Source: Gemmatimonadaceae bacterium | Lineage (GTDB): Bacteria; Gemmatimonadota; Gemmatimonadetes; Gemmatimonadales; Gemmatimonadaceae | Direction: 5' to 3' | Assembly: GCA_040902005.1 (NCBI GenBank) | Contig: JBBDYA010000005.1 | Coordinates: 1-53,180, forward strand | Length of the DNA stretch: 53,180 nucleotides | Shown: positions 467 through 48,069 of the stretch, in pieces | How the letters are laid out: every line of letters begins with the position of its first letter | Numbering within the stretch: position 1 is the stretch's first letter | The notes under the pieces: generated by a model | Told to the model about the DNA's origin: nothing | Seen by the model: the letters and a program-made list of their open reading frames with translations, nothing else | Database searches by the model: none | Made by a program: the position numbers and the translations under genes

Positions 467-2833
467 CTACATCCGCAGCACGTAGCTCAGTTTGACGAAG
501 AACCCGTCCGTCGTGCGCTGAAGGTCCGTGGGACTGAACTCGGCGCTGCCCAGGTTGGCCCCGTAGCCCAGGAAGAACACGGTCCCCGGGCTGGGCTGGT
601 AGGAGAACAGCCAGTCGGCGCGCAGGCTGCCGCGGTCGATGGCCGTCGCGCGCCGGAATCCGGTCGAGGTCTGGATGAGGATCGGGTCGCCCGTCCGCGA
701 ATCGTCGCGCAGCGAGTCCACCTTGAGTCCGTCGTACTGCGCCACCACGCGCATGAAGACAGGCCGCGCCACCTGGTATTCCAGCTTGAGCCGCGGAATG
801 GAGCGAATGCGTACGAGCGATCCATCGGTTTTGCGATACACGCGCTGTTCCAGCCAGCGGGCGTTGACGCGAATGCGGTCGTCGGGCCGCCAGTCCGCAT
901 TGAGCGTCGAGTAGAGAATCCATGCCGACGACCATTCGTCGAAGTTGTCGTCCTGCCCGCCAATGATTTCGGCGCTGCCCGAGAACTGCTTCCACTGCGG
1001 CGTTCCAACCGCGGTCATCACGCCGATATTCGTCAGCCGGTCCGTCCCGGTGAACGGAACGGTGTCCATCACCGCGCCGCCTGCATCGCGTCGCTCAACG
1101 AACAAGTTGGTATACAGGAACGCCGGGTACTTGAACGTCTCCGTCCATGTATAGAGCGTGGTGCTCCACCCGCCCTTCCAGATGGCGGTGGTGTTGGTGT
1201 TCATCTTGATGTCGTTCGGCTCCGTGCCATCCATGAAGCGGTCCCACTCCCACGTGTTGTCCGAGATCAACGTGAAGGAGAGGGACTGCACCGCATTGTT
1301 CCGCGGATACCACGTACGCCGCGGCTGGAACACGCCGCGAACAACACCGGTCCGTGATATGAACCCGCTGGCCGCGTTGAAATCGGGATGCACGCCCTCG
1401 AACACGGCGTTGAACCCACGTTCGCGGCCGGTTCGGCTGAGCGTGAAGTCGAACAGCGGCCGGCCGGCCCCGTTCAGGCCACCCACGCCAGTGAAGCTGC
1501 CGGCCACCTGGCTGGTGAGCACGTGGCGGCTCCCCAGGAGTAGCCGCGAATCGAACCCCACGACGCGGTTGTAGTCCCCGCCCTCCATCCGGTCCGTGTA
1601 CACCATGCCGACGTTCGAGCCCGGCGCCACATCGCGCCGCAGGCGGACGATGTTGTAGATGGGGTCGTCGGCCAGCACAGACGCCGCGCCGTCGTCCACC
1701 GCCGACAGCACACCCACATTGGTGCCGCCGATCTTGCCGCTCAGCTTGGCCGCGCCCTGCGGCGATACGATACGACGCGTGTAGATGAGCGAGTTCGGAA
1801 CCTGGAAGTTCTCGTTCGCTTCGAGAAAGAACGGTCGCTTCTCCGGAAAGGAGATCGCCGAGCGTGGATCGAAGATCGTCTGGCCCACGTCGGACTCGAC
1901 TTGCGAGAAGTCCGGGTTCACGGTGGCATTGAGCGAGGCGTTGGGCGTCACGCCCCAGCGCACGGTGCCGCCGAACTCCGGAGCCTGGCCACGGTAACGC
2001 CACTGCGGATCCGCCGGGCTGATCGGCGCACCCGTGTTGGTTGCCGTCATCACCGGATTCACGTCCATCACGAGGCCGCGCCTGAGGTTCGTGAGGTCCA
2101 GCAAGCGCCCGCTCTGCTCGAGGAAGGAGGGTCGGCCTCGCTCCGCCGGCGTCCACGTCTGTTCGTGCCCGGAGTGCATCACGCGCCGAATCACCTGGAC
2201 GCCCCACTGCTGCGTGGGCGTCTGCTGGTACCGGATGCTCTTGAACGGAATGCGCACCTCGATTTCGAAGCCGTAGTCCGTGACGCGACCCTTCGACTCG
2301 AAATGGAAGTCCGGATTGCGGTCCGTGCCGCTGCCCTCGGCGTACGTCCCGTCGCCCTGGATGCCGAGCGGGTTGACCGAAAACACCAGCGCCCGTTGCC
2401 GGTCGTTGAACGTGTCGAGAATGAGCTCGACGTTGTCGTTACCGAAAATACGATCGCGGTCGGCAATGGTGGCGGCGACGCTGCCATGCGGTTCGAACGC
2501 GCGGATGCCGAAGTACATGGCATGGTCGGTGTACATGACCAGTACTTCGGTGGAGTCTGCCGCGGGCTGACGGTCCACGGGGTGGTACTGCGAAAAGCCG
2601 GTCAGCACCGACGCGGCGCTCCACGCGGTTTCGTCGATCCGGCCATCGATGGTGAGCGTCGCTTGCACCTTGGGGATCCTGACGTCGAGCTGGCCGGTGC
2701 GACCGTGATAGGTGTTCGGCGGCGATGAAGCTGGCAGGGTGGCTGGTGTCGGGGCCGGTCCACCACCCGGGCCTTGCGCGCTCAACGGCAGCCCCACGGC
2801 GGCGGCCATTGCGCAGGCGGCAATGATGTTCAT
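467..2833 (-). CDS. DUF5916-family outer-membrane protein with N-terminal CBM9/DOMON-like domain
   Basis: 788 aa with a signal peptide. Motifs IDGRIDE..W, EVRIPFKSIRY, ATVNPDFSQVESD, EKRPFFLE; beta-barrel-like C-terminus FFVKLSY. Confidence 0.85.
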   Translation of the reverse strand: MNIIAACAMAAAVGLPLSAQGPGGGPAPTPATLPASSPPNTYHGRTGQLDVRIPKVQATLTIDGRIDETAWSAASVLTGFSQYHPVDRQPAADSTEVLVMYTDHAMYFGIRAFEPHGSVAATIADRDRIFGNDNVELILDTFNDRQRALVFSVNPLGIQGDGTYAEGSGTDRNPDFHFESKGRVTDYGFEIEVRIPFKSIRYQQTPTQQWGVQVIRRVMHSGHEQTWTPAERGRPSFLEQSGRLLDLTNLRRGLVMDVNPVMTATNTGAPISPADPQWRYRGQAPEFGGTVRWGVTPNASLNATVNPDFSQVESDVGQTIFDPRSAISFPEKRPFFLEANENFQVPNSLIYTRRIVSPQGAAKLSGKIGGTNVGVLSAVDDGAASVLADDPIYNIVRLRRDVAPGSNVGMVYTDRMEGGDYNRVVGFDSRLLLGSRHVLTSQVAGSFTGVGGLNGAGRPLFDFTLSRTGRERGFNAVFEGVHPDFNAASGFISRTGVVRGVFQPRRTWYPRNNAVQSLSFTLISDNTWEWDRFMDGTEPNDIKMNTNTTAIWKGGWSTTLYTWTETFKYPAFLYTNLFVERRDAGGAVMDTVPFTGTDRLTNIGVMTAVGTPQWKQFSGSAEIIGGQDDNFDEWSSAWILYSTLNADWRPDDRIRVNARWLEQRVYRKTDGSLVRIRSIPRLKLEYQVARPVFMRVVAQYDGLKVDSLRDDSRTGDPILIQTSTGFRRATAIDRGSLRADWLFSYQPSPGTVFFLGYGANLGSAEFSPTDLQRTTDGFFVKLSYVLRM

Positions 2834-2923
2834 CGCAGAACGATAGCGAGTCCGGGTCGGGCGAGAACTGTCTGGGTGCTACACGGCCGTCGGGCGGGCC
2901 AGCCCGGTTTCCGTTCTGTCAGT

Positions 2924-2951
2924 TTCCTGGTTCCTAGTTCCTAGTTCCTAA
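2924..2951 (+). repeat. Heptamer tandem repeat (TTCCTAG)x4, imperfect
   Basis: ttcctgg ttcctag ttcctag ttcctaa read directly from the sequence. Confidence 0.85.
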
Positions 2952-2952
2952 G

Positions 2953-3081
2953 ATGATGCGGCGGTTGGTTCAGGCGGGCCGGCGGTCGCGACTCGCGATC
3001 GCCGGCGCCGCCCACGTGGGCGCGCTGCCCACGCTGCTGCACGGGTACCTCATCGTCTTTCGCGGCAGCCGCCTGTTCTAG
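2953..3081 (+). pseudogene. 42-aa small ORF or 3' remnant of a membrane-protein gene
   Basis: MMRRLVQAGRRSRLAIAGAAHVGALPTLLHGYLIVFRGSRLF*. High-GC3 codons; below the ORF-track size cutoff; starts right after the heptamer repeat. Confidence 0.35.
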
Positions 3082-3101
3082 CGCCCGCGTCGCCGGCCGG
3101 C

Positions 3102-5183
3102 CTAGAAGATGCCAAACCGCGTCGCCAGCTCGCTCATGCGTTCGCCGATCTGCGTGTCGCTCGCCGCCACGCTGAAGGCCTCGAGGAACGCGATGTCCAG
3201 CGCCGGCTGTGGCGACCCATAGCCGTATCGCCAGCAACGATCCTCGCTCAGGTTGGCGCTGACAATGCTCGTAAAGTGGCGCGCCTGGTGAAAGCCGATG
3301 CTCGCTCCGCGGAAGGCGATCAGTGGGTCCTTCAGCGTGTTCGCCGTCTTCTGGCTGACGTTGTCCACGTACACACTCATCCCTTCGAGGGTGCTGAAAC
3401 GGAACGCATAGACGGCCCATCGTGTCCGGTTGGGCGCCCTGCGCTGCACGCCACCGTAGGAGCGGAAATGCATCTCGATGTTTCCCGTCCAGTTGAACCC
3501 GATGGTCATCGTTTGGCGCGCTCCTGCGTGATAGTCGGCGCGCTCGTTGGTGAACAGGAACACGTGCCCCCCTGAATGGTGCAGCGTCGCGCTGTCGGCG
3601 GTCGAGCGCACCACCGCGAAGATCGTAAAGCTCGTATCCTCGAGTGCCCGGCCGTCGAACCGATGCCAGGGGAACACGTGGATGACCGAGTCCTGTGTGG
3701 AGAAGGGGTGTGCGGTTCCGTCGAGCCCCGGCGTGCGGTGCTGATGGTAGCGCACGAAGCCGTTTCCGTTGGGCCCGTCGGCCGCGGGCATCGCGATCCC
3801 GGCATAGGCGTTCTTTACCTTGGTGGTGTTGATGTTGGTCGAACCCAAGCAGCTGGAGATCCACTCGAACATCTTGGGGCGGCTTTCCATCGGCGTGAGG
3901 GTGCCGCTCACCGACTCGACCCACGACGACAGGTACTGCGGCGTGTCGCCGTTGACGAGCGTGAAGGGGTCGGAGTTCAGGTTGGCCGGCACGGCGTCAA
4001 ACCGGAACGCCGGGTTGCGAAACATGTCCGAGTACGTCTGGCAGTCCACCACGTCATACTCCGTAGCCAGTTGCGTGGCGACGATGCGATTGTCCACGAC
4101 GTTGCGCACCACGTACGACAGCGGGACCCCGGTTCGGATGTCCGAACTTTCGGCGAACAGTTCGACCAGATCGGCCAGGTTTGTCTCGCCGAACGTGCGG
4201 ATCGTGGCGCCAGCCTCACCTCCCAGGGCGAACACGGACACATTGAGCTCGCTCTGTGTTCTCAGGAGGTCGAACTCGGCGTTGATTTGGCCGTCCACGA
4301 GCCCCCTGTCGAAGCTCGCCTCCAGCGCCGCGCTGAGCTCGAGCTGACTCGACGTGCTCTCCACCAGCATATAGTAGATGCGCCCGTAGGTGACGTCGGA
4401 GATGTAGGTGGCGGGATTTCCGTCGCCGACCTGTCGCGCAAGGTCGGCCGGTGTGACCTCGGGCGCGAACAGGTCGGAGTACGCGGCCGGCAACTGGAAG
4501 CTCATCGTGTAGTAGGACTGCGTGAGCTTCACGAGGAGCCGGCTGTACTGCCTGTCCGTCCGCATGTTGAACCTGCCCTCGACACTCACGAACGCCGTGT
4601 TGATGTCCACGCCAAGGCCGAGAGAAAACTGCTCGCGCGAGCGCGCGTCATGGACCGACATGGTGAAGTTCGCCGGCAGAACTCCCGTGTTGCTGGCGAC
4701 GATGTCGTTCATGGCCTGGACGATCTGCGCTTGCGTGACCTCGGACACCTCGCGGTAGACCCCCTGCGAGCCGTTCACGATGTTGATCGCAACCACGCCC
4801 GGCGCGCGCCGAACGGCGACGGGATCCGGCGGCGCCTTTCTCAGCGTCGCCCCCTGGAGCAGCGAGCCGGGGTAAATGACCCCGGCGGCGGGGTCGAACA
4901 GGGGAAAGCCGGCGGGACCGCCGCCGGCACGCATCGCGCTCACGCGCCGGCTGGTGCAGACTTGATAGCTGCCGCCGCCAAGGTCGGTTTCGACGGGTTC
5001 GCCCTCCAGGAGCGTGGCGTCGGCGTTCACGGCCTCGCTCAACATGTTGCCGCCCGCTGTCAGCACCGTGGCGAACTCATTTTCCAGGGCGTCGGGAGCA
5101 AGACCGCCATCGCTACATGCCAGGAGGGTGGCTACCGCGATGAGGGCCTTCGTCCGAAAGGGGATGGACCGGATGCTGTTCAT
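3102..5183 (-). CDS. Thiol-activated cytolysin family (CDC-like) lipoprotein with putative C-terminal LamG/ConA-like domain
   Basis: 693 aa from ATG 5183 (SD GGAGA). Lipobox LLAC; motifs VIYPGSLLQG, QSYY..., YISDVTYGR, GVPLSY. No ECTGLAWEWWR undecapeptide. Confidence 0.85.
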   Translation of the reverse strand: MNSIRSIPFRTKALIAVATLLACSDGGLAPDALENEFATVLTAGGNMLSEAVNADATLLEGEPVETDLGGGSYQVCTSRRVSAMRAGGGPAGFPLFDPAAGVIYPGSLLQGATLRKAPPDPVAVRRAPGVVAINIVNGSQGVYREVSEVTQAQIVQAMNDIVASNTGVLPANFTMSVHDARSREQFSLGLGVDINTAFVSVEGRFNMRTDRQYSRLLVKLTQSYYTMSFQLPAAYSDLFAPEVTPADLARQVGDGNPATYISDVTYGRIYYMLVESTSSQLELSAALEASFDRGLVDGQINAEFDLLRTQSELNVSVFALGGEAGATIRTFGETNLADLVELFAESSDIRTGVPLSYVVRNVVDNRIVATQLATEYDVVDCQTYSDMFRNPAFRFDAVPANLNSDPFTLVNGDTPQYLSSWVESVSGTLTPMESRPKMFEWISSCLGSTNINTTKVKNAYAGIAMPAADGPNGNGFVRYHQHRTPGLDGTAHPFSTQDSVIHVFPWHRFDGRALEDTSFTIFAVVRSTADSATLHHSGGHVFLFTNERADYHAGARQTMTIGFNWTGNIEMHFRSYGGVQRRAPNRTRWAVYAFRFSTLEGMSVYVDNVSQKTANTLKDPLIAFRGASIGFHQARHFTSIVSANLSEDRCWRYGYGSPQPALDIAFLEAFSVAASDTQIGERMSELATRFGIF

Positions 5184-5539
5184 ACTGTCTCCTTGGAGGG
5201 TAGTTCGATCACGTCGAGCAGCTTGGTGAGATCGGATTTCGGCACGAACGCGAACGCGCCGGCCTCGTGGGCCGCGCGCCGGTACGCCGCGCTGTCGTGA
5301 TGGGTCACGATCACCACGCGCGCGTTGGGATGGGACGCGCGGATGCGGCGTGTCGCTTCCACGCCGCTCACGCCGTCCATCGCGATGTCCATGAGCACCC
5401 AATCGGGGTGCACGCGGTCGTAGAGCGCGACCGCGCTCGCGCCGTCGGTGCACTGGTGGACGTCGGGATGCAGGTGCTGCACGACTTCCCTGATGGTCTC
5501 TCGCATACGCTCGTTGTCGTCCACGATCAGAACGGACAT
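5180..5539 (-). CDS. Stand-alone response-regulator receiver (REC) protein
   Basis: 119 aa with VLIVDD, VLMD, IVT, FVPK. No output domain. The stop overlaps the cytolysin start (ATGA). Confidence 0.9.
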   Translation of the reverse strand: MSVLIVDDNERMRETIREVVQHLHPDVHQCTDGASAVALYDRVHPDWVLMDIAMDGVSGVEATRRIRASHPNARVVIVTHHDSAAYRRAAHEAGAFAFVPKSDLTKLLDVIELPSKETV

Positions 5540-5695
5540 GGCGACAGAGTACGGCCGAGGCCGCCCGGCCACATGGGAGTCCTCTCCCGGTTTTCCCGGG
5601 GGAGGTCACCCGGAGACCCGGCCTAGGCGAGCAGGGAGGTGTGGTCGGGGTTCATGCCGGCCGTGCCACCATCGTCCTGGGCAATCGCTCCGGCA

Positions 5696-7087
5696 CTACG
5701 GGCAGGACGTGACGCGCCAGGCGTACCGGCTGGCGGGCGCGCTCTGCACTTCGGGCGCGCGGAAGCGCGACGGCCGCTCCACCCCCCACATGAGCAGCAG
5801 CGAATCGCTGCGCGCGGACATCAGGCTCGGCCTGCTTGCCACGTCCGCGAAGGGCAGCGGCTCCACGCGTTGCCACGCGCCGTCACTCCAGTCGAACCAG
5901 ACGATCGGAGCGCCGTCCCTCGTTGAGTACGTCACGCCCTGGATTCCGCCGGCGGCCGGCGTGACGCTCGACAGGTGCCCCACGCGTGCTGGGTGTGCCA
6001 CCGAAGCGGGTGACGTCCACATCGCGCCGTCGGACGAGAGCATGACATGCAGGCTGTCCGCGCCGCCAGCCGATGATGCGGCCGACGCCCACAGCACGCC
6101 GAAGCGCCCGCCATTCGCCGACGATTCATGGAAGAGCCGAGGGAAGCTGGCGAAGCGTGCGGCGGACGAATGGATGCGACGCTCGGCGGGGAAGGCGGTG
6201 TCGTTGGCCGACGCGCGGATCAGGAAGAGATGGGTAACGCTGGCGACGTCCGTGGCGGTGAAGGCGATGAGCACCGAGTCACGCGCATACGGAAGCACGG
6301 ACGCGTGTGTCGGTCGGCTACCATGGAAGTGCAGCACGGTGCGACTCACCGACGCGCCGGTGCGCAGATACGCGACACCGGCGCCCGTGCCCGACCGCAC
6401 GAAGGGAACGGCGACGTGGACGTCACGCCCTCCCCCCACCCCCGCTCGCACGTCGCCCCCCCCCGGCTGCCATAGCAGCCGAGTCGTGGACAACAGTCGC
6501 TCCTGCACGGTCCAGTCCGCGCCCTCGCGGCGGGCGTGCCAGAGCGCGGTGGAGTCTCCCTGAGGATTCATCCAGTAGAGGTGGACGCCGCCAGCGGAGT
6601 CCCGGGCCACGGCCGCGCGCTCCACGAGCCCGCGCAGTCGCGCGGGAAAGCGAATCCCGGACGCGCGCATGTTCCGGTCGAGCGCCAGGCCCACGTTGGA
6701 GAAGTTGCGCCCCAGCCGGTCGAAGTACGCCACCGTGTCCGCGCGGCTCGGTCCGGGCGCGGGATCGAACGTGTGCGTCGTGGCCCAGAAGAAGGATGGG
6801 GTGCCGGCCAGCAGCAGCGTGTCGCCAACGACCGCGAGCGAGGGTGTCTCGATGTACGCCGGCCTGCCGTCGGTGCTCAGCAGGTCGTGCGCGTCGCTCC
6901 ACCGCGCATCGCAGCGCGCAGCCTCGGGAGGGAACCCCGGTTGCATTTGAGTCGCAGGCGGCGGCACGGGTGTCGGCGTCGGTGTCGCTGGCGCGCAGGC
7001 ACTCGTCGCCGCCAGCACCAGCGCCTTCACCGCGCGTGACGAGGGCCATGCACGGCGCAACGAATTTCCCCGATGTCGGCGCGTCAT
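5696..7087 (-). CDS. Hypothetical exported lipoprotein, beta-rich (possible propeller/BNR-like)
   Basis: 463 aa. Signal peptide ending LAATSAC, Pro/Thr linker, SSDGAMW Asp-box-like motif; TAGACT-N7-ATG upstream. Confidence 0.65.
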   Translation of the reverse strand: MTRRHRGNSLRRAWPSSRAVKALVLAATSACAPATPTPTPVPPPATQMQPGFPPEAARCDARWSDAHDLLSTDGRPAYIETPSLAVVGDTLLLAGTPSFFWATTHTFDPAPGPSRADTVAYFDRLGRNFSNVGLALDRNMRASGIRFPARLRGLVERAAVARDSAGGVHLYWMNPQGDSTALWHARREGADWTVQERLLSTTRLLWQPGGGDVRAGVGGGRDVHVAVPFVRSGTGAGVAYLRTGASVSRTVLHFHGSRPTHASVLPYARDSVLIAFTATDVASVTHLFLIRASANDTAFPAERRIHSSAARFASFPRLFHESSANGGRFGVLWASAASSAGGADSLHVMLSSDGAMWTSPASVAHPARVGHLSSVTPAAGGIQGVTYSTRDGAPIVWFDWSDGAWQRVEPLPFADVASRPSLMSARSDSLLLMWGVERPSRFRAPEVQSAPASRYAWRVTSCP

Positions 7088-13616: not shown

Positions 13617-14671
13617 ATGCTCCTGCACGAGAAGACGCGGTGACAGCACCGAGCGCCGACCCGGCTCCGCTCATAGCGCTGGACGACTACGAGCGCGCGG
13701 CCCGCGAGCGCATCGCGCCCGCGGCGTGGGAGTACATCCAGAGCGGCGCCGCGGACGAGCACACGCTGCGCTGGAACCGCGAGGCGTACGCGCGCATCCA
13801 ATTGAGTCCGCGCGTGCTGAACGACGTGAGCCGCGTGGATACCAGCGTGCGCGTACTCGACTGCGACCTGCCACATCCGATATTGCTGGCGCCCATCGCG
13901 GCGCAGCGGCTCGCGCATCCGGAGGGCGAGGTGGCCACGGCGCGCGGCGCGCGCGCGGCGGGGGCCGGAATGGTGCTCAGCAGCTACACGTCCAGGCCGG
14001 TGGAGGACGTGATCGCGGCGGGGGTGCGGCCGCTCTGGTTCCAACTCTACATGCAGGAGCGCTCGGCGACGCGCGACCTGGTGTCACGCGTGGCGGACGC
14101 CGGTTGCACCGCGCTCTGCGTGACCGTGGACACGCCGACGAGCGGTGCCCGCGACCGGCAGGCGCGGTCCGGCTTCGAGTTCCCGGCGGGCCTTCCATAT
14201 AGAACGGTGGAGCCGGGAGACAACCCATGCACCTGGGAGGACATCGCGTGGATCCGCGACAGCGCCGGCGTTCCTGTGATCCTCAAAGGCATTTTGCATC
14301 CGGACGACGCGGAGCTCGCCATCCAGTCCGGCGCCGCGGCGATCGTGGTGTCGAATCACGGTGGGCGAAACCTGGATACGCTGCCGCCTGCCATCGACGC
14401 GCTGCCGCGCGTGGTGGAGCGGGTGCGCGGCCGCGTCCCGGTGCTGGTGGACGGGGGCATCCGCCGCGGCACGGACGTTCTGAAGGCCATCGCGCTGGGC
14501 GCGAGCGCGGTGCTGATCGGCCGGCCGTACGTCTACGGACTGGCAGTGGGGGGCGCCGGGGGAGTGGAGGCGGTCGTACAGATCCTGCGGCGGGAGCTGG
14601 AGCAGGCCATGGCCCTCACCGGGCGAGCGCGGATGGGTGACGTGGATGGTTCGACGATCTGGCGAGCGTGA
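13613..14671 (+). CDS. FMN-dependent alpha-hydroxy acid oxidase/dehydrogenase
   Basis: WFQLY, VTVDTP, ILKGI, VSNHGGRNLD, DGGIRRGTDVLKA, IGRP. GTGA overlap with the transporter. Confidence 0.92.
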   Translation: MNAPAREDAVTAPSADPAPLIALDDYERAARERIAPAAWEYIQSGAADEHTLRWNREAYARIQLSPRVLNDVSRVDTSVRVLDCDLPHPILLAPIAAQRLAHPEGEVATARGARAAGAGMVLSSYTSRPVEDVIAAGVRPLWFQLYMQERSATRDLVSRVADAGCTALCVTVDTPTSGARDRQARSGFEFPAGLPYRTVEPGDNPCTWEDIAWIRDSAGVPVILKGILHPDDAELAIQSGAAAIVVSNHGGRNLDTLPPAIDALPRVVERVRGRVPVLVDGGIRRGTDVLKAIALGASAVLIGRPYVYGLAVGGAGGVEAVVQILRRELEQAMALTGRARMGDVDGSTIWRA

Positions 14672-14702
14672 ACCAACCTTTTCCGCCCAACTGGTGTCGT
14701 AT

Positions 14703-14719
14703 CCTAAGAACCTTAGGTT
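14703..14719 (+). promoter_or_regulatory. Palindromic operator overlapping the -10 element of padR
   Basis: CCTAAG-AAC-CTTAGG (14703-14717) overlapping TAGGTT (14714-14719), 7 nt before ATG 14727. Confidence 0.7.
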
Positions 14720-14726
14720 ACACACC

Positions 14727-15080
14727 ATGCCTCGCACACCAGACCTCGAACTCCTCCGCGGCACCCTCGACCTCCTGATCCTCAGGACCCTGGCATGGGG
14801 ACCCATGCACGGTCTCGCCGTCGTCCGCTGGATCGAGGACGGCAGCCGCCGACAACTCCAGATCGAGGAGGGCGCGCTCTATCCCGCCCTCCATCGCATG
14901 GAGCAGAAGGGGTGGCTCGACGCCGAATGGGGGTATACCGACCAGAATCGCCGCGCCAGGTTCTACCGCCTCACCGCACTCGGCCGCCGCCAGCTCACCG
15001 CGGAAATGTCCAAGTGGCAACGCTATGCCCTGGCCGTCGGCCACGTGCTGGCCTTCGAGGGCAATGGGGGAGGGCGCTGA
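14727..15080 (+). CDS. PadR-family transcriptional regulator (acidobacterial type)
   Basis: LLRGTLDLLIL..L..GPMHG, EEGALYPALHR, NRRARFY.LT..GR. Confidence 0.92.
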   Translation: MPRTPDLELLRGTLDLLILRTLAWGPMHGLAVVRWIEDGSRRQLQIEEGALYPALHRMEQKGWLDAEWGYTDQNRRARFYRLTALGRRQLTAEMSKWQRYALAVGHVLAFEGNGGGR

Positions 15081-15081
15081 C

Positions 15082-17838
15082 GTGCGGCGCGAGCCCTTCC
15101 TGCGGCGCGTGTTCCGCCTTCCCGCCAGCAGCGCGCGCCTCGAGCGCAGCGTGGACGACGAGCTGCGCTTCCACCTGGACGAGCGCGTGCGCGAATTCAT
15201 GGCGCGCGGCATGACGCGCGACGAAGCCGAGGCCGAAGCACGCAAGCGCTTCGGCGACTACGACAGCTATTCGCGACACACCCGTGACGTGGACGCACAG
15301 ACCATGACCATCCGCAACCGCATCGAACTCGTCGACACCCTGCGCCGTGAAGTACCACGCGCCGCGCGGCTCCTCGCCCGCGCTCCGGGGTTCGCGGCGA
15401 TCGCGATTCTCACGCTGGCGCTCGGCATCGGCGCCACGACCGCCATCTATTCAGTGGTGAAGGGGGTGCTGCTCAACCCGCTCCCGTATCCGAACCCCGA
15501 GGCGCTGGTGTCGGTCATGCACCCCACCTCGGCGCCCGGCAGCGGTGAGCGGCAGTGGGGGCTCGCATCCGTGGGGTACTTCCACTTCCGCGAACACGCG
15601 AGCACGCTCGAGGCGCTCGGCGTCTATCGCTCGGGGATGCTCTCGGTGGCGGAACCGGGGCAGCCCGCGCAGCAGGTACGCATGGCGCAGGTGACCGCGT
15701 CCCTCTTCGACGTGTTCCAGGCACGCCCGCACCTGGGGCGCCTCGTCACCGCGGAGGACGACTTGCCGGGACTGGCGCTCCGCACCGTGGTGCTCTCGTA
15801 CGAATTCTGGCGCCATTACTACGGCGAGGACCCGGACATCGTGGGCCGCACGATCCAGACGTCCGCGTTTCCACTCGAGATCATCGGCGTAACGCAGCCG
15901 GGACTGACGCTGCCGCGCCCCGGCGCATTCGCGTCATCCGCGGACCTCACGACCTTTGGCGTGGACCTCTGGGTGCCGCTGAACCTCGATCCGGCAACGC
16001 GACAGAACAACCACGCCTTCGCCGGCGTCGGGCGTCTTGCGCCTGGCGCGACCGCCGACGCGGCGCAGCGCGAGCTGTCCACCATGACGGGGCAATTCTC
16101 GGCGCTGTTCCCCGACGTGTATTCGCAGCGCTTCATGGAGAGCTACAACTTCCGCGCCGGCGTTACCCCCCTGCACGATGAAGTGCTCGGTCCCACGATC
16201 GGCCGCGCCCTCTGGATCCTCTTTGGTGCGGTGGCGCTGGTGCTCGTCATCGCCGCCGCGAACGTGGCCAACCTGTTTCTCGTGCGCATGGAGGCGCGCC
16301 GGCGCGACGCCGCCGTGCGGGCGGCGCTCGGCGCGGACCGGCGGCACATGGCGGTGCACTACCTGTCGGAGAGTCTCATGCTCACGCTCGCCGCCGGCGC
16401 GTTGGGCGTGGTGCTCGCGCGCGTGGGGCTCGCCGCGATGCTCGCCATCGCGCCGAGGAACGTGCCGCGGCTCGTCGGCGTGGAGCTGGATGGTTCGTCG
16501 CTGTTGTTCGCGCTGGCGCTGGCGGTGGTGGCCGGCATCTCACTGGGTGTCATGCCGCTGCCGCGGGCGACGAGCGTGGACGTGGACACCCTGCGGGACG
16601 GTGCGCGTGGGCTGGGCGCGTCGCGTCGGCAGCGAATGGCCAGGCATGCCCTGGTCGTGGCGCAGGTGGCGCTCGCGATGATGCTGCTGGTGGCCTCGGG
16701 GCTGATGATCCGCAGCTTCATGCATCTCCGCGACGTGCAGCCGGGACTCGACGCCTCGGGCGTGCTCACCCTCGGCGTGTCGCTGCCGTATCGGTCCTAC
16801 GAGACTATGGAGCAGGCGGCGGCGTTTCATCGCGAGTTCGGCGAGCGTGTGGGGGCGCTGCCTGGGGTGGTGGCGATCGGCGCAAGTGGCGCGCTGCCGC
16901 TCCGGGACTATGGAACGGGGTGCTCGGTGGTGTTTCGCGAGAACCGCCCATATGCGTCGGGGGAGCCCACGCCCTGCGTTCACACGGTGCCTGCCACGCC
17001 CGGCTTCTTCGACGCGCTCGGCATCACGGTGCGCGGTCGCGCGCCCGATTGGGGCGACGTATCGACAAAGACGCAGGCGGTGGTGGTGACGGAGGTACTC
17101 GCGCGCCGACTGTGGCCCGGCGAGGATGCCATCGGGAAGGGAATAGGCACCAATGGGCCGGACTCGCCATGGTGGTATCGCGTAGTGGGCGTGGTCCCGG
17201 AGCTGCGCGCGGGCGGCCTCGATCAGCCGCCCACCGAAGCGGTGTTTCTTGCCGCGAGTCCGCTCTACCCGGCGCAGAACCGCTGGGGAATGCTGAACGG
17301 GCTGGTCGTTGCGGTGAAGGTGGCGCGCGGCCAGCCGGACGACCTCATCGGCCCCATCCGTCGGGTGCTGACGGAGATGGACGCGCAGATTCCGATGGTG
17401 AATCCGGTGACGATGGAGACGGTGGTGGACCGCTCGATCGCGCGGACGTCGTTTGTGATGGCGCTGCTGAGCATCGCGGCGGCCATCGCGCTGCTGCTCA
17501 GCGCCGTGGGGCTGTATGGAGTGATCTCGTACCTCGTGGCGCAGCGCCGGGCGGAGATCGGGGTGCGCATCGCGCTCGGGGCGTCGGTGTCGCGCGTGCT
17601 GCGGATGGTGATGGGCGAGTCGGCGCGGCTCGCGCTGCTCGGAGTGGCGCTGGGCCTGCTGGGTGCGTTTCTCGGGACGCGTCTGCTCCAGGCGCTGCTG
17701 TTCGGCGTGAGCCCCACGGACTCACTGGTGCTGACCGTGGTGCCCATCGTGCTGCTCGCCATCACGGCGCTGGCGAGTTTCCTCCCGGCCCGCCGGGCAG
17801 CGCGACTCGATCCGGCGGAGGCGTTGAGGAACTCGTAA
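15082..17838 (+). CDS. ADOP-type duplicated orphan ABC permease (MacB/FtsX repeats)
   Basis: DDELRFHL prefix, PGFAAIAILTLALGIGATTAI, ANVANL, GLYGVISY.VAQRR.EIGVRIALGA, PARRAAR.DP..ALR. Confidence 0.92.
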   Translation: MRREPFLRRVFRLPASSARLERSVDDELRFHLDERVREFMARGMTRDEAEAEARKRFGDYDSYSRHTRDVDAQTMTIRNRIELVDTLRREVPRAARLLARAPGFAAIAILTLALGIGATTAIYSVVKGVLLNPLPYPNPEALVSVMHPTSAPGSGERQWGLASVGYFHFREHASTLEALGVYRSGMLSVAEPGQPAQQVRMAQVTASLFDVFQARPHLGRLVTAEDDLPGLALRTVVLSYEFWRHYYGEDPDIVGRTIQTSAFPLEIIGVTQPGLTLPRPGAFASSADLTTFGVDLWVPLNLDPATRQNNHAFAGVGRLAPGATADAAQRELSTMTGQFSALFPDVYSQRFMESYNFRAGVTPLHDEVLGPTIGRALWILFGAVALVLVIAAANVANLFLVRMEARRRDAAVRAALGADRRHMAVHYLSESLMLTLAAGALGVVLARVGLAAMLAIAPRNVPRLVGVELDGSSLLFALALAVVAGISLGVMPLPRATSVDVDTLRDGARGLGASRRQRMARHALVVAQVALAMMLLVASGLMIRSFMHLRDVQPGLDASGVLTLGVSLPYRSYETMEQAAAFHREFGERVGALPGVVAIGASGALPLRDYGTGCSVVFRENRPYASGEPTPCVHTVPATPGFFDALGITVRGRAPDWGDVSTKTQAVVVTEVLARRLWPGEDAIGKGIGTNGPDSPWWYRVVGVVPELRAGGLDQPPTEAVFLAASPLYPAQNRWGMLNGLVVAVKVARGQPDDLIGPIRRVLTEMDAQIPMVNPVTMETVVDRSIARTSFVMALLSIAAAIALLLSAVGLYGVISYLVAQRRAEIGVRIALGASVSRVLRMVMGESARLALLGVALGLLGAFLGTRLLQALLFGVSPTDSLVLTVVPIVLLAITALASFLPARRAARLDPAEALRNS

Positions 17839-42502: not shown

Positions 42503-43482
<980 letters not shown>

Positions 43483-43486
<4 letters not shown>

Positions 43487-44481
43487 CCCACCGCCCCAGC
43501 GGGGTCATGCGCACCGCGTCCTGGCGCGGTCACACCGATCCCGGATCGCAGCCGGACGTGCCCGGCGTGACCACGCCGCGGCCCCCCGTTTCGCGCGTGC
43601 CGCCGGAGGTGCTCCGTCAGGTGAAGCTGCTCGAGCTTCGCACCCGCGGGCTTGTGAATTCGCTCTTCTCCGGCGAGTACCGCTCCGTGTTCAAGGGGCA
43701 GGGAATGGAGTTCGCCGAGGTCCGCGAATACCAGCCGGGCGACGAGGTGCGCAGCATCGACTGGAACGTCACCGCGCGCATGCGCCGCCCGTACGTGAAG
43801 CGGTACATCGAGGAGCGCGAGCTGACCGTGATGCTCGCGGTGGATCTCTCGGGGTCCGAGCGATTCGGCACGCAGCGCCGGTTCAAGAGCGAGCTGGCGT
43901 CGGAGCTCGCGGCGGTGATCGCGATGTCCGCCATTCGCAACAACGATCGCGTGGGCACGTTGCTGTTCACCGACCGGGTGGAGCACGTGGTGCCACCGCG
44001 CAAGGGACGCCGGCACGCGCTGCGCCTCATCCGGGACCTGCTCGTCTTCGAGCCACTGGGACGCGGCACCGACGTCGCGGGCGCCACCGAGTATCTCAAC
44101 AAGATGCTGGCGCACAAATCCATCATCTTCGTCGTCTCCGACTTCATCTCGCCCGCCATCGAGCGACCGCTCAAGCTGTTGGCGCAGCGGCATGATGTCG
44201 TGGCCGTCACCGTGGAGGACCCGAGCGAGCTGACGCTCCCCGACATCGGGCTGGCCCGGCTCGCCGATCCGGAAACCGGCGAGACGATCGACGTGGACAC
44301 GAGCGATCCCGAGGTGCGCGCGGCGTTCGCCCGGCACGTCGCCGACGAGCGCGACGGGCGCAAGCGGCTGCTGCGCCGGCTGGCCATCGACGAAGTGCCC
44401 GTCCGCACCGACGGCAGCATCGTGGAGCCGCTCTTCCGCTTCTTCCGCGCGCGCGAAACGCGCACGAGGCGCCGCCGGTGA
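43483..44481 (+). CDS. DUF58-family (VWA-like) protein
   Basis: FKGQGMEFAEVREY.PGD, IDWNVTAR, DLSGS, SDF. The true start may be slightly downstream. Confidence 0.92.
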
Positions 44482-45407
44482 AGCGGCTCTGGACGCTGGC
44501 GTTGCTGCTGGGCCCCGCGGCCGCGAGCGCGCAGGGGGGGGGGCAGTTGCCGGCAGACTCGGTGCGGTACGGCGTCACCACGTCGCACGACACGGTCACT
44601 GTGGGCGAGGCCTTCGAGGTTCGCGTGCGCGTGCGCGCGCCGGTGGATGCCACGATCCGCTTCCCGGAGCAGCCTGATTCGACCGGCACGGTGCAGGCGC
44701 GCGATCCCCGCGTCATCCAGATCACGGACAGCATCCAGGCGCGCGACGAGACCGCAGTGTACCGGGTGTCGGCCTGGGATGTGGAGACCCAACCGATCAT
44801 TCTTCCGGACGTGGTGGTGAGCTGGACGGGGGGCGAGCGCCGCATTCCGCTGGGCGGTCTCGAGGTGTTCGTTCGGAGCGTGCTGCCGGCGGACAGCACG
44901 CTGCGCGTGCCGAAGCCGGCGCGGCCGCTCTGGGAGCCGCGAGCGTTCCCCTGGTGGCTGCTTGCGGCGCTGCTCGCCGCCGCCATCATCGGCGCCCTGC
45001 TCTGGTGGTGGTGGCGTCGTCGCCGTCGCCCGCGGGCCGCCGAGGTCCTCGATCCGTACGCGCAGGCGCAACGCGAGTTCAACCGGCTGGATGCCATGGG
45101 CCTGGTGGACGCGGGCGAACGCACGCGATTCGCCGCGCTCGCCGTGGAAGTGCTGCGCGACTACCTCGTGGCGCGCTATCCGGACCTGTCGCTCGCGCTC
45201 ACCAGCCGCGAGGTGGTCGCGATGATCCGGCGCCATCCCACCGTGCCGGCAGAGCAGTTGTCGCGTGTGCTGCACGAAGCTGATCTGGCCAAGTTTGCCG
45301 GCTTTTCGCTCGTGGAGGAGCGGGCGCGCAATCTCGCGCGTGACGCCCGGGGGATCGTCGAGCACGACCACGCGGCCTCACAGCCGCCAGCGCAGGCGGC
45401 CGCATGA
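44478..45407 (+). CDS. Bat-operon membrane-anchored protein (signal peptide, Ig-like domain, TM, helical domain)
   Basis: Sits between the DUF58 and VWA genes; C-terminal ADLAKFA motif. Confidence 0.75.
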   Translation: MKRLWTLALLLGPAAASAQGGGQLPADSVRYGVTTSHDTVTVGEAFEVRVRVRAPVDATIRFPEQPDSTGTVQARDPRVIQITDSIQARDETAVYRVSAWDVETQPIILPDVVVSWTGGERRIPLGGLEVFVRSVLPADSTLRVPKPARPLWEPRAFPWWLLAALLAAAIIGALLWWWWRRRRRPRAAEVLDPYAQAQREFNRLDAMGLVDAGERTRFAALAVEVLRDYLVARYPDLSLALTSREVVAMIRRHPTVPAEQLSRVLHEADLAKFAGFSLVEERARNLARDARGIVEHDHAASQPPAQAAA

Positions 45408-46399
45408 TCGACGTCGGCCTCGTGCAGTTCGCGTCCCCCTGGGCGCTTCCGCTCCTGCTCGCCCTCCCCGCGTGGTGGCTGTGGCGCAGCCGCCGCAAGC
45501 GCCCCGCGATCGTCTTCTCGCGCGTGAGCGCGCTTGCCAGCGGTCCGCGCGCGGGCCGCGGCATCACGCGCGCGCTCTTCCTGCTGCGCAACCTCGTGCT
45601 GCTGGGCGTGGTGGTCGCGCTCGCGCGTCCGCGGTCCGGGGCGCGCGCGGAGGACGTCACCTCCGATGGCATCAACATCGTGATCGCCTTCGACATCTCC
45701 AGCTCGATGCTCGCGCAGGACTTCCAGCCGCAGAACCGGCTCGAGGTCGCGCGCGAGAAGGTGAAACAGTTCGTGTCGTTGCGGCGCAGCGACCGGATTG
45801 GTGTCGTCGCGTTCTCCGGCGAGGCGCTCACGCAGGTGCCACTCACCACCGACTACCCCGTTGTGCTGGCGGCCCTCAACAACCTCCAGCCCGGCCAGCT
45901 CGAGGATGGCACCGCGATCGGCACCGCGATTGCCACCGCCGCGAACCGGCTCAAGGACGCGCCGGGCGCGTCACGCGTGGTGATCGTCCTCACCGACGGC
46001 GTCAACAACCGCGGCTCGATCGATCCCCGCACCGCCGCGCGTGCGGCGGCGGCGCTCGGCATCCGCGTGTACACGATCGGGGTGGGAACGGAGGGGATGG
46101 CACCCGTGCCCGTGGGACGCGGCCTCTTTGGCTTGCGGTACGAGATGCGTCCGGTGGAGATCGACGATCAGCTGCTCACCGAAGTGGCGCGGCTCACGGG
46201 TGGACGCTACTTCCGCGCGCGCGACGCGGCGGCGCTCGACCGCATCACGCACGAGATCGACCGGCTGGAGCGCGTGCCCGTGCAGACGCGCACGTACGTC
46301 CGCTTCACGGAGCTCTATCGCTGGCCGCTGCTGCTCGCCCTGTTCGCGCTCGCGGCCGAGATTACGCTCTTTGCGCGCCGGGGGCCGCTGCCCGCATGA
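45404..46399 (+). CDS. batA: VWA-domain protein, BatA-like
   Basis: FASPW.L, ALARP, MIDAS DISSSM, DRIG...F, GTAIG, LTDG.NN.G. Confidence 0.88.
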   Translation: MIDVGLVQFASPWALPLLLALPAWWLWRSRRKRPAIVFSRVSALASGPRAGRGITRALFLLRNLVLLGVVVALARPRSGARAEDVTSDGINIVIAFDISSSMLAQDFQPQNRLEVAREKVKQFVSLRRSDRIGVVAFSGEALTQVPLTTDYPVVLAALNNLQPGQLEDGTAIGTAIATAANRLKDAPGASRVVIVLTDGVNNRGSIDPRTAARAAAALGIRVYTIGVGTEGMAPVPVGRGLFGLRYEMRPVEIDDQLLTEVARLTGGRYFRARDAAALDRITHEIDRLERVPVQTRTYVRFTELYRWPLLLALFALAAEITLFARRGPLPA

Positions 46400-48069
46400 G
46401 GATCTCCTTCGACTACCTCTGGCTGCTGCCGCTGGCGCTCCTGCTGCCGGTGGCCTTCATCTGGCTGCTGGGGCGCGCGGCCGGGCGTCGCCGTGATCGG
46501 CTCGCGCGCTTTGGCGAGCTGGAGATCGTCAAGCGCCTGCTCCCCGCCAACGCCACGGGATCGCTCAAGCCGCGCGCGGCCCGCCTCGCGGTCGCGGGCG
46601 CGCTCCTCGGCGTGGGCATTGCCGGCCCGCGGTGGGGCACGGAGCAGACGGTCGTCCGGTCGCGTGGCATCGACATGGTGTTCGCGCTCGACGCGTCGCT
46701 CTCGATGATGGCCACCGACGCGCGCCCCAACCGGATCACAGAGATGAAGCAGGAAGTGCGTCGCCTGCGGGCGATGTCGCGCGGGGACCGCGTGGGGCTC
46801 ATCGCATTCGCCGGGCGCAGCTACGTGCTCTCGCCACTCACGATCGACGCGGGCGCACTCGATCTCTTCCTGGACAACCTCGATCCGTCCGTGGTGGGCC
46901 AGGCGGGCAGTTCGCTCGCGCGCGCCATCCGGCAGGGCACCGACCTGCTCTCGCTCACGAAGAGCACGGCCGACCGGGCGCTCGTCGTGATGAGCGACGG
47001 CGAAGCGTTCGAGGACGTGGAGGACGTCATCGCCGAGGCGCGCAGGGCGGGCGAGCAGGGGATCAATCTCGTGACCGTTGGCTTCGGCTCGACGGACGGC
47101 GCGAACATTCCCGTTCGCGAGGGCGGCGTCAACACACTCAAGCGCGACGACCAGGGTCAGATCGTCGTGACGCGCTACCAGCCGGACTTCCTCCAGGCCG
47201 CGGCCGAGGCGGCCAAGGGCACCTTCATTCCCTCGGAGCTGACGGACAAGGCGACTCGCGTGCGCGCCGCGCTCGCGTCACTGCGTCGGCAGCAGCGCGT
47301 GACGCTCGGCGGCGAAACCCAGACGCCGCGATATCAATGGTTCCTGCTTCCCGCGGCACTGCTGCTGCTGGTGGACACCCTGCTCAACGAGCGGCGCGGC
47401 CGACGCAAACGGGGTGCGGCCGCGTCCACCGCCGCCCCTGTGGCGGCGATGCTGCTCTTCCTGCTCGTGGGCTGCGCCGGACAGTCCGGCTCGGCCGCGG
47501 CCGCGCGGGCGTATCACGCGCAACAGTATCCCCGGTCGGCGGCGATGTTTCGCGCGCTGGTGGACGCAGGCGATCGCACCCCGCCCACGCTCTACAACTA
47601 TGGAACGGCCCTGCTCGCCGCCGATTCACTCACCGGCGCGGCCGAGGTGCTGGAGCGCGCGGCCGAATCGACCGATCCCGAGCTGCGGTATCGCTCGCTC
47701 TTCAACCTGGGGCTGGCGCACCTGAAGCGGGGGCTGGCGCTGCCGGAGCAACAGGCAGAGGAGCCGCTGAATGCGGCACTCGCCGCCTACAAGAAGGTGC
47801 TGCTCTTGCGTTCCGGGGACATGGATGCCAAGTGGAACTACGAGCTGGCCCTGAGAAAGAAGGAGGGCGGTGGCGGCGGTGGAGGGGGTGGGGGAGGCGG
47901 GTCCGACGAGAGCCCGTCGCGTGAACAGCAGCCCAGGCCGAGCGGCGGCCTTGGCGAACAGCAGGCCGAGCAACTGTTGGGGAGCGCGGCCCGCGAGGAG
48001 CGTGACGTGCAGGCGAGACGGCAACAGCGCAGCAGGGTAGAGCCCCCGCCCGGCGGGAAGGACTGGTAG
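46396..48069 (+). CDS. VWA plus TPR protein (BatB-BatC fusion)
   Basis: GPRWG, DASLSM, MSDGE, TM segment, TPR (YNYG, FNLG, AKWNYELA); C-terminal KDW. Confidence 0.85.
   Translation: MRISFDYLWLLPLALLLPVAFIWLLGRAAGRRRDRLARFGELEIVKRLLPANATGSLKPRAARLAVAGALLGVGIAGPRWGTEQTVVRSRGIDMVFALDASLSMMATDARPNRITEMKQEVRRLRAMSRGDRVGLIAFAGRSYVLSPLTIDAGALDLFLDNLDPSVVGQAGSSLARAIRQGTDLLSLTKSTADRALVVMSDGEAFEDVEDVIAEARRAGEQGINLVTVGFGSTDGANIPVREGGVNTLKRDDQGQIVVTRYQPDFLQAAAEAAKGTFIPSELTDKATRVRAALASLRRQQRVTLGGETQTPRYQWFLLPAALLLLVDTLLNERRGRRKRGAAASTAAPVAAMLLFLLVGCAGQSGSAAAARAYHAQQYPRSAAMFRALVDAGDRTPPTLYNYGTALLAADSLTGAAEVLERAAESTDPELRYRSLFNLGLAHLKRGLALPEQQAEEPLNAALAAYKKVLLLRSGDMDAKWNYELALRKKEGGGGGGGGGGGGSDESPSREQQPRPSGGLGEQQAEQLLGSAAREERDVQARRQQRSRVEPPPGGKDW

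Follow-up and report, generated by a model that had tools for sequence, protein, structure and literature searches.

The window analysed here is a 53,180-nucleotide stretch of DNA (contig JBBDYA010000005.1 of GenBank assembly GCA_040902005.1) from a Gemmatimonadota bacterium (Gemmatimonadaceae) of soil or sediment, and the element in question is a pair of overlapping genes on its minus strand. The upstream gene, P0002 (5180..5539), encodes a 119-amino acid (aa) protein with a receiver (REC) domain only, and the downstream gene, P0001 (3102..5183, stop codon included), encodes a 693-aa predicted lipoprotein in which the core of the cholesterol-dependent cytolysins (CDCs) is joined to a tail with a concanavalin A (ConA)-like/laminin G (LamG) fold. 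We regard P0001 as probably a self-sufficient pore-former under two-component control, with a non-sterol receptor domain to target it. What is new is that CDC-family genes are found repeatedly in association with a triad of genes encoding a kinase, a LuxR-type regulator and a REC-only protein.

The P0001 open reading frame (ORF) runs from an ATG at 5183 to a stop codon at 3102-3104 (minus strand) and the N-terminus of its product (MNSIRSIPFRTKALIAVATLLAC) is laid out as a lipoprotein signal, with a basic n-region, the hydrophobic stretch ALIAVATLLA and the lipobox L-L-A-C, which ends at Cys23, the predicted lipidated residue (residues 1-23; 5115..5183). The original prediction for this locus had described a lipoprotein with an LLAC box, and this agrees with the invariance of Cys23 in all 18 aligned family members, two of which match LPAM_1; lipidation and location are predicted from the sequence. 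The cytolysin motifs that it had named are likewise all present, with YPGSLLQG beginning at residue 104, YY at 224-225, YGR at 266 and PLSY at 354.

The proposed CDC-type pore-forming core was borne out by a profile search, in which PF01289 (Thiol_cytolysin, CDC domains 1-3) matched residues 93-376 of P0001 (4056..4907) with an E-value of 6.2e-31 and 107.9 bits (cut-off 25). When all chains of the Protein Data Bank (PDB) were searched with P0001 by phmmer, vaginolysin (8.7e-21), intermedilysin and pneumolysin (~1e-20) and perfringolysin O (~1e-15) were found and, among the CDC-like proteins (CDCLs), the short Elizabethkingia anophelis form at 7.5e-13 and a long form at 0.008. A profile (A1) built from an alignment of 18 family members with identities down to 33% matched classical CDCs at 1.8e-43 to 1.7e-24, the short CDCL at 3.1e-12 and the long CDCL at 4.2e-6. 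Because of this gap in E-values the P0001 family is placed much nearer to authentic CDCs than to characterised CDCLs; judged by sequence, its core is closer to the former than to the characterised Bacteroidota CDCLs, which corrects the earlier reading of the core as CDC-like. Structure searches with Foldseek, using the full-length AlphaFold model of P0001 (mean predicted local distance difference test score (pLDDT) 67), gave the same ranking, with intermedilysin (1s3r) first (E 1.2e-18), other CDCs next and CDCLs at 1.2e-11, and both the CDC fold and helical versions of the transmembrane hairpin (TMH) segments were seen.

Several features of the core relate directly to pore formation. Across the 18-sequence alignment there is no variation at G267, R268, G321 or G322 and almost none at Y225, and the YGR and GG positions belong to the prepore-to-pore switch described for CDCs and CDCLs (PMC7527733, PMC11169675). 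Two segments, residues 183-212 (TMH1-like; 4548..4637) and 279-312 (TMH2-like; 4248..4349), align with the transmembrane hairpins of CDCs. The first contains helices at 183-190 and 198-202 of the soluble model and the second at 280-291 and 305-308, and TMH1 has a period-2 amphipathic sequence. When the beta-amphipathic moment was calculated in 11-residue windows, the two segments accounted for 18 of the top 25 windows in the whole of P0001, with starts at 183-200 and 279-307. Both helical bundles thus appear, from sequence and model, able to become amphipathic beta-hairpins.

Alignments of P0001 with CDC chains in the PDB end at around residue 385, and the position that domain 4 occupies in CDCs is taken by a ConA-like/LamG jelly roll at residues 387-693 (3105..4025). 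No domain-4 family was matched by P0001 in a Pfam scan at E up to 1, no undecapeptide-like string was present in it, and the cholesterol-recognition loop is absent, which agrees with the earlier claim that the cholesterol-binding undecapeptide of domain 4 is missing. Folded alone with a 9-sequence alignment, residues 382-693 gave a jelly-roll beta-sandwich (pLDDT 75.7, predicted template modelling score (pTM) 0.83). In a VIA-align comparison covering 48,161 chains, this model was closest to the lectin-like N-subdomain of clostridial neurotoxin binding domains (Z 17.3-15.6, ~205 aligned residues, root-mean-square deviation (rmsd) ~3; for the top match Z 17.3, rmsd 3.0 and 208 residues), followed by a cyanophage tailspike (15.9), the sialic-acid-binding CBM40 (15.2-14.7), the GH43 arabinan-binding domain 4 (14.5), pentraxins (13-11) and the LG domains of laminin, agrin and perlecan (~10.5). 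Foldseek agrees on the jelly roll (E 1e-7), and the Atlas structure neighbours of the tail carry Laminin_G_3 (PF13385). The LamG/ConA-like tail of the original prediction is thus found as a beta-sandwich by structure, but P0001 itself has no PF13385 match at E up to 1; eight of the 18 aligned relatives do match this family, the best at 1.5e-10. A profile of the tail gave 0 matches among PDB sequences, and an exhaustive phmmer search with residues 387-693 against 1.84 billion representatives returned three matches, itself included. Two insertions mark the tail in the close clade, one at ~425-500 with the invariant cysteine C445 and one at ~640-660 with the invariant cysteine C650, which would fit a disulfide-stabilised binding surface outside the cytoplasm. 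The fold is common to binders of glycans, proteins and lipids and therefore does not by itself fix the ligand: some neighbours of the tail bind glycans (CBM40, GH43 domain 4) and others do not, and the fold makes the earlier description of the effector as "glycan-targeted" a possibility.

The partner gene P0002 opens with an ATG at 5539 and its TGA overlaps the toxin ATG as ATGA at 5180-5183, as had been claimed. An AAGGAG lies 5 nucleotides (nt) upstream of the P0001 ATG, so that the junction as a whole spans 5180..5194. Response_reg (PF00072) matches residues 3-111 of its 119 (E 1.8e-25), the set D7, D8, D51, T79 and K101 is invariant in 7/7 aligned copies and no output domain is present, making P0002 a single-domain response regulator. 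Orthologues with 45-49% identity lie upstream of the CDC-LamG gene in four relatives (loci L079, L080, L002 and L003), and with the window included a REC-only gene directly precedes the CDC-LamG gene in 5/5 close-clade loci; conservation of this linkage in relatives, which the original prediction had named as a check, was thereby upheld. The ATGA overlap occurs in the window, L079 and L080, with short spacers in L002 and L003, and is also seen at two other contigs of the same genome (C126 and C35). Further from the clade a P0002-like receiver is absent upstream in 7/7 more distant LamG-type loci, two of which have <300 nt of upstream sequence. Within the order, such receivers were present in four of 201 genomes.

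The receiver had been called an orphan, and this did not survive comparison with relatives. In 4/4 close relatives (L079, L080, L002, L003) the gene order is kinase, LuxR regulator, REC-only, CDC-LamG, with a kinase of ~1000 aa (Reg_prop/Y_Y_Y/HisKA_3) and a REC+GerE regulator, and an 85%-identical copy of P0002 stands behind such a kinase-regulator pair in its own genome; P0002 is an orphan by position only. The placing of this copy follows from contig C117. Read in reverse, its last genes are those of a kinase and a LuxR regulator, and it shares an exact 55-nt overlap, inside the GerE domain of the LuxR gene, with the start of contig C126 (loci L092 and L106). This overlap joins the two contigs into the order kinase, regulator, REC copy and 1108-aa lipoprotein (P0244), the last of which has an ATGA overlap with the receiver and, apart from a weak Big_13 match, Ig-like repeats read from its sequence. 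The duplicated segment covers a ~95-nt leader and nearly all of REC (5203..5637, minus strand) at ~88% nucleotide identity (leader 90%) in a pairwise DNA alignment (A4), and at its far edge it takes in the end of the LuxR-type regulator gene, with four codons and the stop. Contig C35 (L107 4276-5060) encodes a third receiver with 47% identity to P0002. Its gene shares an ATGA with that of a 126-aa lipoprotein (LALAGC) and stands 1.5 kb upstream of a further pair of genes for a Reg_prop kinase and a LuxR regulator. Three other Gemmatimonadota genomes also contain the triad. In G102 (L139 2386-8364) a 626-aa Thiol_cytolysin gene is divergent from it, with ~10 nt between the two longest ORFs, and its product (Thiol_cytolysin E 1.1e-39) is 32% identical to P0001 and has a different tail; in G450 the triad is followed by genes for a secreted protein of 803 aa and a small lipoprotein, and in G255 by a TldD/PmbA-like pair. 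Since the receiver recurs with kinase-regulator pairs and other cargo, it belongs to the signalling module and not to the toxin. As read from these sequences, the receiver-toxin pair in the window is detached from its kinase-regulator pair, with the module's leader kept.

The leader contains an imperfect hairpin, CCTCCCCCGG(G)-AAAA-CCGGGAGAGG, with no U-tract (window 5566-5616, minus strand), which in the C126 copy directly follows the LuxR stop codon. Within its own genome the leader was found at the window and C126 only, apart from one 16-nt chance match, and no wider regulon sharing it was detected there. There were 0 Rfam matches in 5300-5800, and the one terminator-like site in 2700-5800 lies on the plus strand, opposite to the genes (shuffles average 1.8). 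Near the C35 receiver we observed an AT-rich stretch with a direct ATGGTCA repeat just upstream (L107 4140-4180), unusual in a 69% GC genome, and an adjoining PIN-domain/Phd_YefM antitoxin pair of the type II toxin-antitoxin kind (L107 3340-4237).

Full-length homologues of P0001 were found with 70, 61 and 61% identity (metagenomic sequences), 47-49% (one annotated Ignavibacterium sp.) and 33-38% (Bacteroidota). Hundreds of "thiol-activated cytolysin family" proteins of ~600 aa from Saprospiraceae, Lewinellaceae and Flavobacteriaceae share the core only (41-52% identity). Among 11 of these core-only relatives that were scanned, the tail was unassigned in eight (a region of ~220 aa), an FG-GAP propeller fused to the CDC core in two (P0034, P0088) and missing in one of 403 aa. 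This variety of tails indicates that the targeting end is exchangeable, and the binding domains of CDCLs are likewise variable (Evans et al., PMC7527733). A metagenome scan with the single P0001 protein gave 72 pattern matches and no relative, and when repeated with an alignment (A3) gave 13 loci. Thiol_cytolysin was present in 13 of 401 sampled Gemmatimonadota genomes, its own genome counted; at the 11 other Gemmatimonadota loci examined the identity to P0001 is 24-38%, a LamG-like tail occurs at a single locus (L109), and no P0002-like receiver was found in the 1.5-kb flanks. Apart from the signalling genes, no conserved neighbours were seen at P0001-type loci. Behind the toxin gene, the Ignavibacteria-type relatives carry genes for LamG or FG-GAP proteins that have C-terminal sorting domains of type IX secretion (L002 6980-9938, L003 8480-12868).

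As a self-sufficient pore-former, P0001 would be exported by Sec and lipidated at C23, and then displayed at the cell surface or released. The LamG domain would attach it to the target membrane through a receptor other than a sterol, be it glycan, glycolipid or protein, the monomers would oligomerise, and the YGR/GG-dependent prepore-to-pore switch would fire, upon which the two helical bundles may unfurl to beta-hairpins, insert and form a large beta-barrel pore, with no small partner subunit required. On the regulatory side, a periplasmic beta-propeller (Reg_prop/Y_Y_Y) HisKA_3 kinase would sense an extracellular cue, the LuxR-type response regulator would activate transcription, and the REC-only protein, made with the cargo, would compete for phosphoryl groups. 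Reg_prop-type propeller sensors bind oligosaccharides in Bacteroides hybrid systems, and single-domain receivers serve as phosphate sinks or connectors. By analogy, the REC-only protein most likely accepts phosphoryl groups alongside the regulator and, as a sink or modulator, shapes the response.

A number of observations weigh against this interpretation. The tail of P0001 misses Pfam Laminin_G_3 and its fold gives no ligand, and the full-length model is of low quality in its N-terminal half (pLDDT 40-65), so that the hairpin geometry is taken from homology. The 53-kb window holds no kinase or DNA-binding regulator for P0002, the triad also precedes unrelated cargo (the 1108-aa lipoprotein, the 803-aa secreted protein and the TldD/PmbA-like pair), and the link to toxins is therefore not exclusive. 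There were 0 promoter-like sites in 2700-5800, and the leader RNA fold (-51.2 kcal/mol, z -0.54) was equalled by 56/200 shuffles and hence is not more stable than these. No conserved immunity-like gene was seen among the neighbours; this is compatible with a target unlike the producer and proves nothing. The remaining points concern a partner protein. With the genome at 93% completeness and split over 135 contigs, the gene of a partner may have escaped assembly, and a very divergent partner would be hard to detect, as even the characterised long CDCL is reached at only 4e-6 with the family profile. Tandem CDC pairs were found in six of 104 loci of Bacteroidota relatives, and the 403-aa short form exists.

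These last points also speak for the best surviving alternative, namely that P0001 is the membrane-binding "long" part of a two-component, complement-like CDCL system whose short partner is unassembled, too divergent or encoded elsewhere, and which probably also needs protease activation on the target cell. The characterised Bacteroidota CDCLs are lipoproteins that work as long/short pairs and are protease-activated (PMC11169675, PMC7527733; the long/short pair literature also includes PMC11952106), with activation by removal of an N-terminal propeptide and with a cognate immunity lipoprotein (PMC11169675). For P0001, however, no BcdI-like immunity lipoprotein, short partner or propeptide evidence was found. 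No second CDC gene was detected in its own genome, where PF01289 has one match and the family profile adds none, and there was no MACPF match; the original prediction of a single component is consistent with this, within a genome of the completeness given above. Only one CDC gene was present per locus in the flanks of the four REC-linked relatives, which, with the lack of a second gene in the genome itself, favours a one-protein toxin. In addition, the core is far nearer to the self-sufficient CDCs than to either CDCL form, and both TMH segments are strongly amphipathic. On balance, we consider the long-component alternative unlikely. Tandem or nearby pairs of CDC-core genes were recorded at L010, L019, L033, L034, L036 and L086 (Bacteroidota relatives) and in a Gemmatimonadota genome (G186, contig C5, 39501-43024); these may represent CDCL-like two-component systems inside this clade.

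Less probable still is that P0001 is not a toxin, the CDC-like fold being kept for a role as lectin or adhesin at the surface or as a non-lytic oligomeric scaffold, and that REC is a mere operon neighbour of unrelated function. The ConA-like tail, the DUF5916/CBM9 protein encoded downstream and a BNR/sialidase-like propeller lead upstream would fit glycan handling, and non-toxin cargo also follows the triad elsewhere. Against this, the prepore-to-pore switch residues are invariant down to 33% identity and the TMH-equivalent segments keep their period-2 amphipathicity, neither of which would be maintained without membrane insertion. As for the adjacency being an assembly artefact of the duplicated REC segment, with the toxin not truly receiver-coupled, this is very improbable: the ~88% identity of the copies and the breaks within REC (5397-5504) in independent contigs of the probable source run would permit it, but the junction is bridged by independently assembled contigs from two runs of two studies (one run possibly of the source sample), the first spanning 2800-5397 with 0 differences across 5180-5183 and the second 5066-5360 with 9 differences, and the same adjacency with ATGA recurs in L079 and L080.

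Our preferred reading, a lectin-fold-aimed pore-former under two-component control, can be extended, although we hold the extended form only tentatively and think it more doubtful than not. The triad might be a portable "sense-and-fire" module of bacteria of the Fibrobacteres-Chlorobi-Bacteroidetes (FCB) group, with interchangeable secreted cargo of which CDC-core toxins are a recurrent payload. Through ATGA coupling REC would be produced at a constant ratio to the cargo and might drain the kinase of phosphoryl groups, and toxin output would therefore be self-limiting. P0001 itself might then be a self-sufficient, lectin-aimed pore-former and an evolutionary bridge between the CDCs of Gram-positive bacteria and the two-component CDCLs.

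The surroundings of the gene pair were also inspected. Upstream of REC lies a gene for a 463-aa probable lipoprotein (5696-7087, minus strand) with no Pfam match, whose Atlas neighbours are BNR/sialidase-like beta-propellers (scores 0.89-0.91), and downstream lies the gene for the DUF5916/CBM9 protein (467-2833). Together these may lend the locus a carbohydrate flavour, which we treat as a lead. In none of the genomes G010, G423 and G430 does the orthologue of the DUF5916 gene (58-70% identity) have a second gene of the window next to it. MutL encoded in the window has 75-77% identity to proteins named Gemmatimonadaceae. Elsewhere in the window, the plus strand carries a PadR regulator followed by a large MacB/FtsX-type permease (14637-17838), and a MoxR AAA ATPase, VWA/BatA and BatD, which form an aerotolerance-type (Bat) operon (42503-50459). 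A similar MacB/FtsX permease (3879-6374) stands just after the 1108-aa lipoprotein on C126, followed by a ~820-aa ORF (L106 3879-8954, minus strand). With regard to origin, horizontal transfer of the toxin gene would fit the low identity (24-38%) of the other sampled Gemmatimonadota Thiol_cytolysin genes and the 53-55% GC contigs on which its closest relatives lie. On the contrary side, the GC content at third codon positions (GC3) of P0001 is 0.86, the same as in adjoining genes and equal to that of the host, and by this measure the gene looks native.

CDCs serve as the textbook case of how beta-barrel pores form, and CDCLs, their distant relatives, have recently been shown to be antibacterial weapons. 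The literature search found no published account of such toxins in Gemmatimonadota or of the fusion of a CDC core with a LamG domain, and the earlier statement that this lineage has no characterised toxins of the kind holds as far as that search extends. The P0001 clade would offer a simple one-protein system for examining how receptor binding by a non-sterol domain is coupled to the prepore-to-pore switch and a means of learning what environmental FCB bacteria and Gemmatimonadota do with such pores, and the recurrent link to kinase, LuxR and REC genes may be a route to the signal that triggers toxin production.

With the CDCs (intermedilysin, vaginolysin, pneumolysin and perfringolysin O) P0001 shares the domain 1-3 core at ~20% identity, the YY...YGR and GG motifs and the two TMH bundles, and its tail is attached at the domain-2/domain-4 junction. 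It differs in having a ConA-like/LamG domain in place of domain 4 with its undecapeptide and cholesterol-recognition loop, a lipoprotein signal where CDCs have a Sec signal, an environmental diderm producer (Gemmatimonadaceae) where CDCs come from Gram-positive pathogens, and a gene linked to a two-component module. As domain 4 is absent, P0001 is not a CDC in the strict sense. CDCLs are defined by the motif F/Y-F/Y-Xn-YGR (Evans et al., 2020, PMC7527733), which P0001 contains as Y224-Y225 and Y266-G267-R268. With the long/short pairs of E. anophelis and Bacteroides fragilis (PDB 6xd4, 8g33, 8g32) it also has in common the lipoprotein signal, a non-sterol, highly variable C-terminal binding domain and producers in the FCB group. 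The similarity to these proteins is weak (3e-12 for the short form and 4e-6 for the long form), the tail of P0001 is a LamG jelly roll, and its gene follows a REC-only gene, with a kinase-regulator pair in relatives. Going by its motif, tail and signal, P0001 fits the published CDCL umbrella, but no co-encoded long/short pair was found in its own, 93%-complete genome or at the loci of the four REC-linked relatives. The E. anophelis CDCLs were found in membranes and in spent medium, and the supplementary alignment of the same study holds Maribacter and Ignavibacteria sequences, with no Gemmatimonadota name in the supplements examined (PMC7527733).

The two remaining comparisons concern the parts joined to the core. 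The tail shares the jelly roll of the LamG/ConA-like lectins (Laminin_G_3, CBM40, the neurotoxin N-subdomain and pentraxins) over ~200 aligned residues, with only 8-13% identity in structural alignments and with clade-specific insertions of its own. P0002 shares with single-domain response regulators the 119-aa receiver with its D-D-D-T-K set, placed in relatives beside a HisKA_3 kinase and a NarL/LuxR-class regulator, and differs from them by its translational coupling to secreted cargo genes. Overall, the P0001 clade sits between CDCs and CDCLs, with a core as CDC-like as that of Gram-negative CDCs, to which a lectin-fold domain and a lipid anchor are added.

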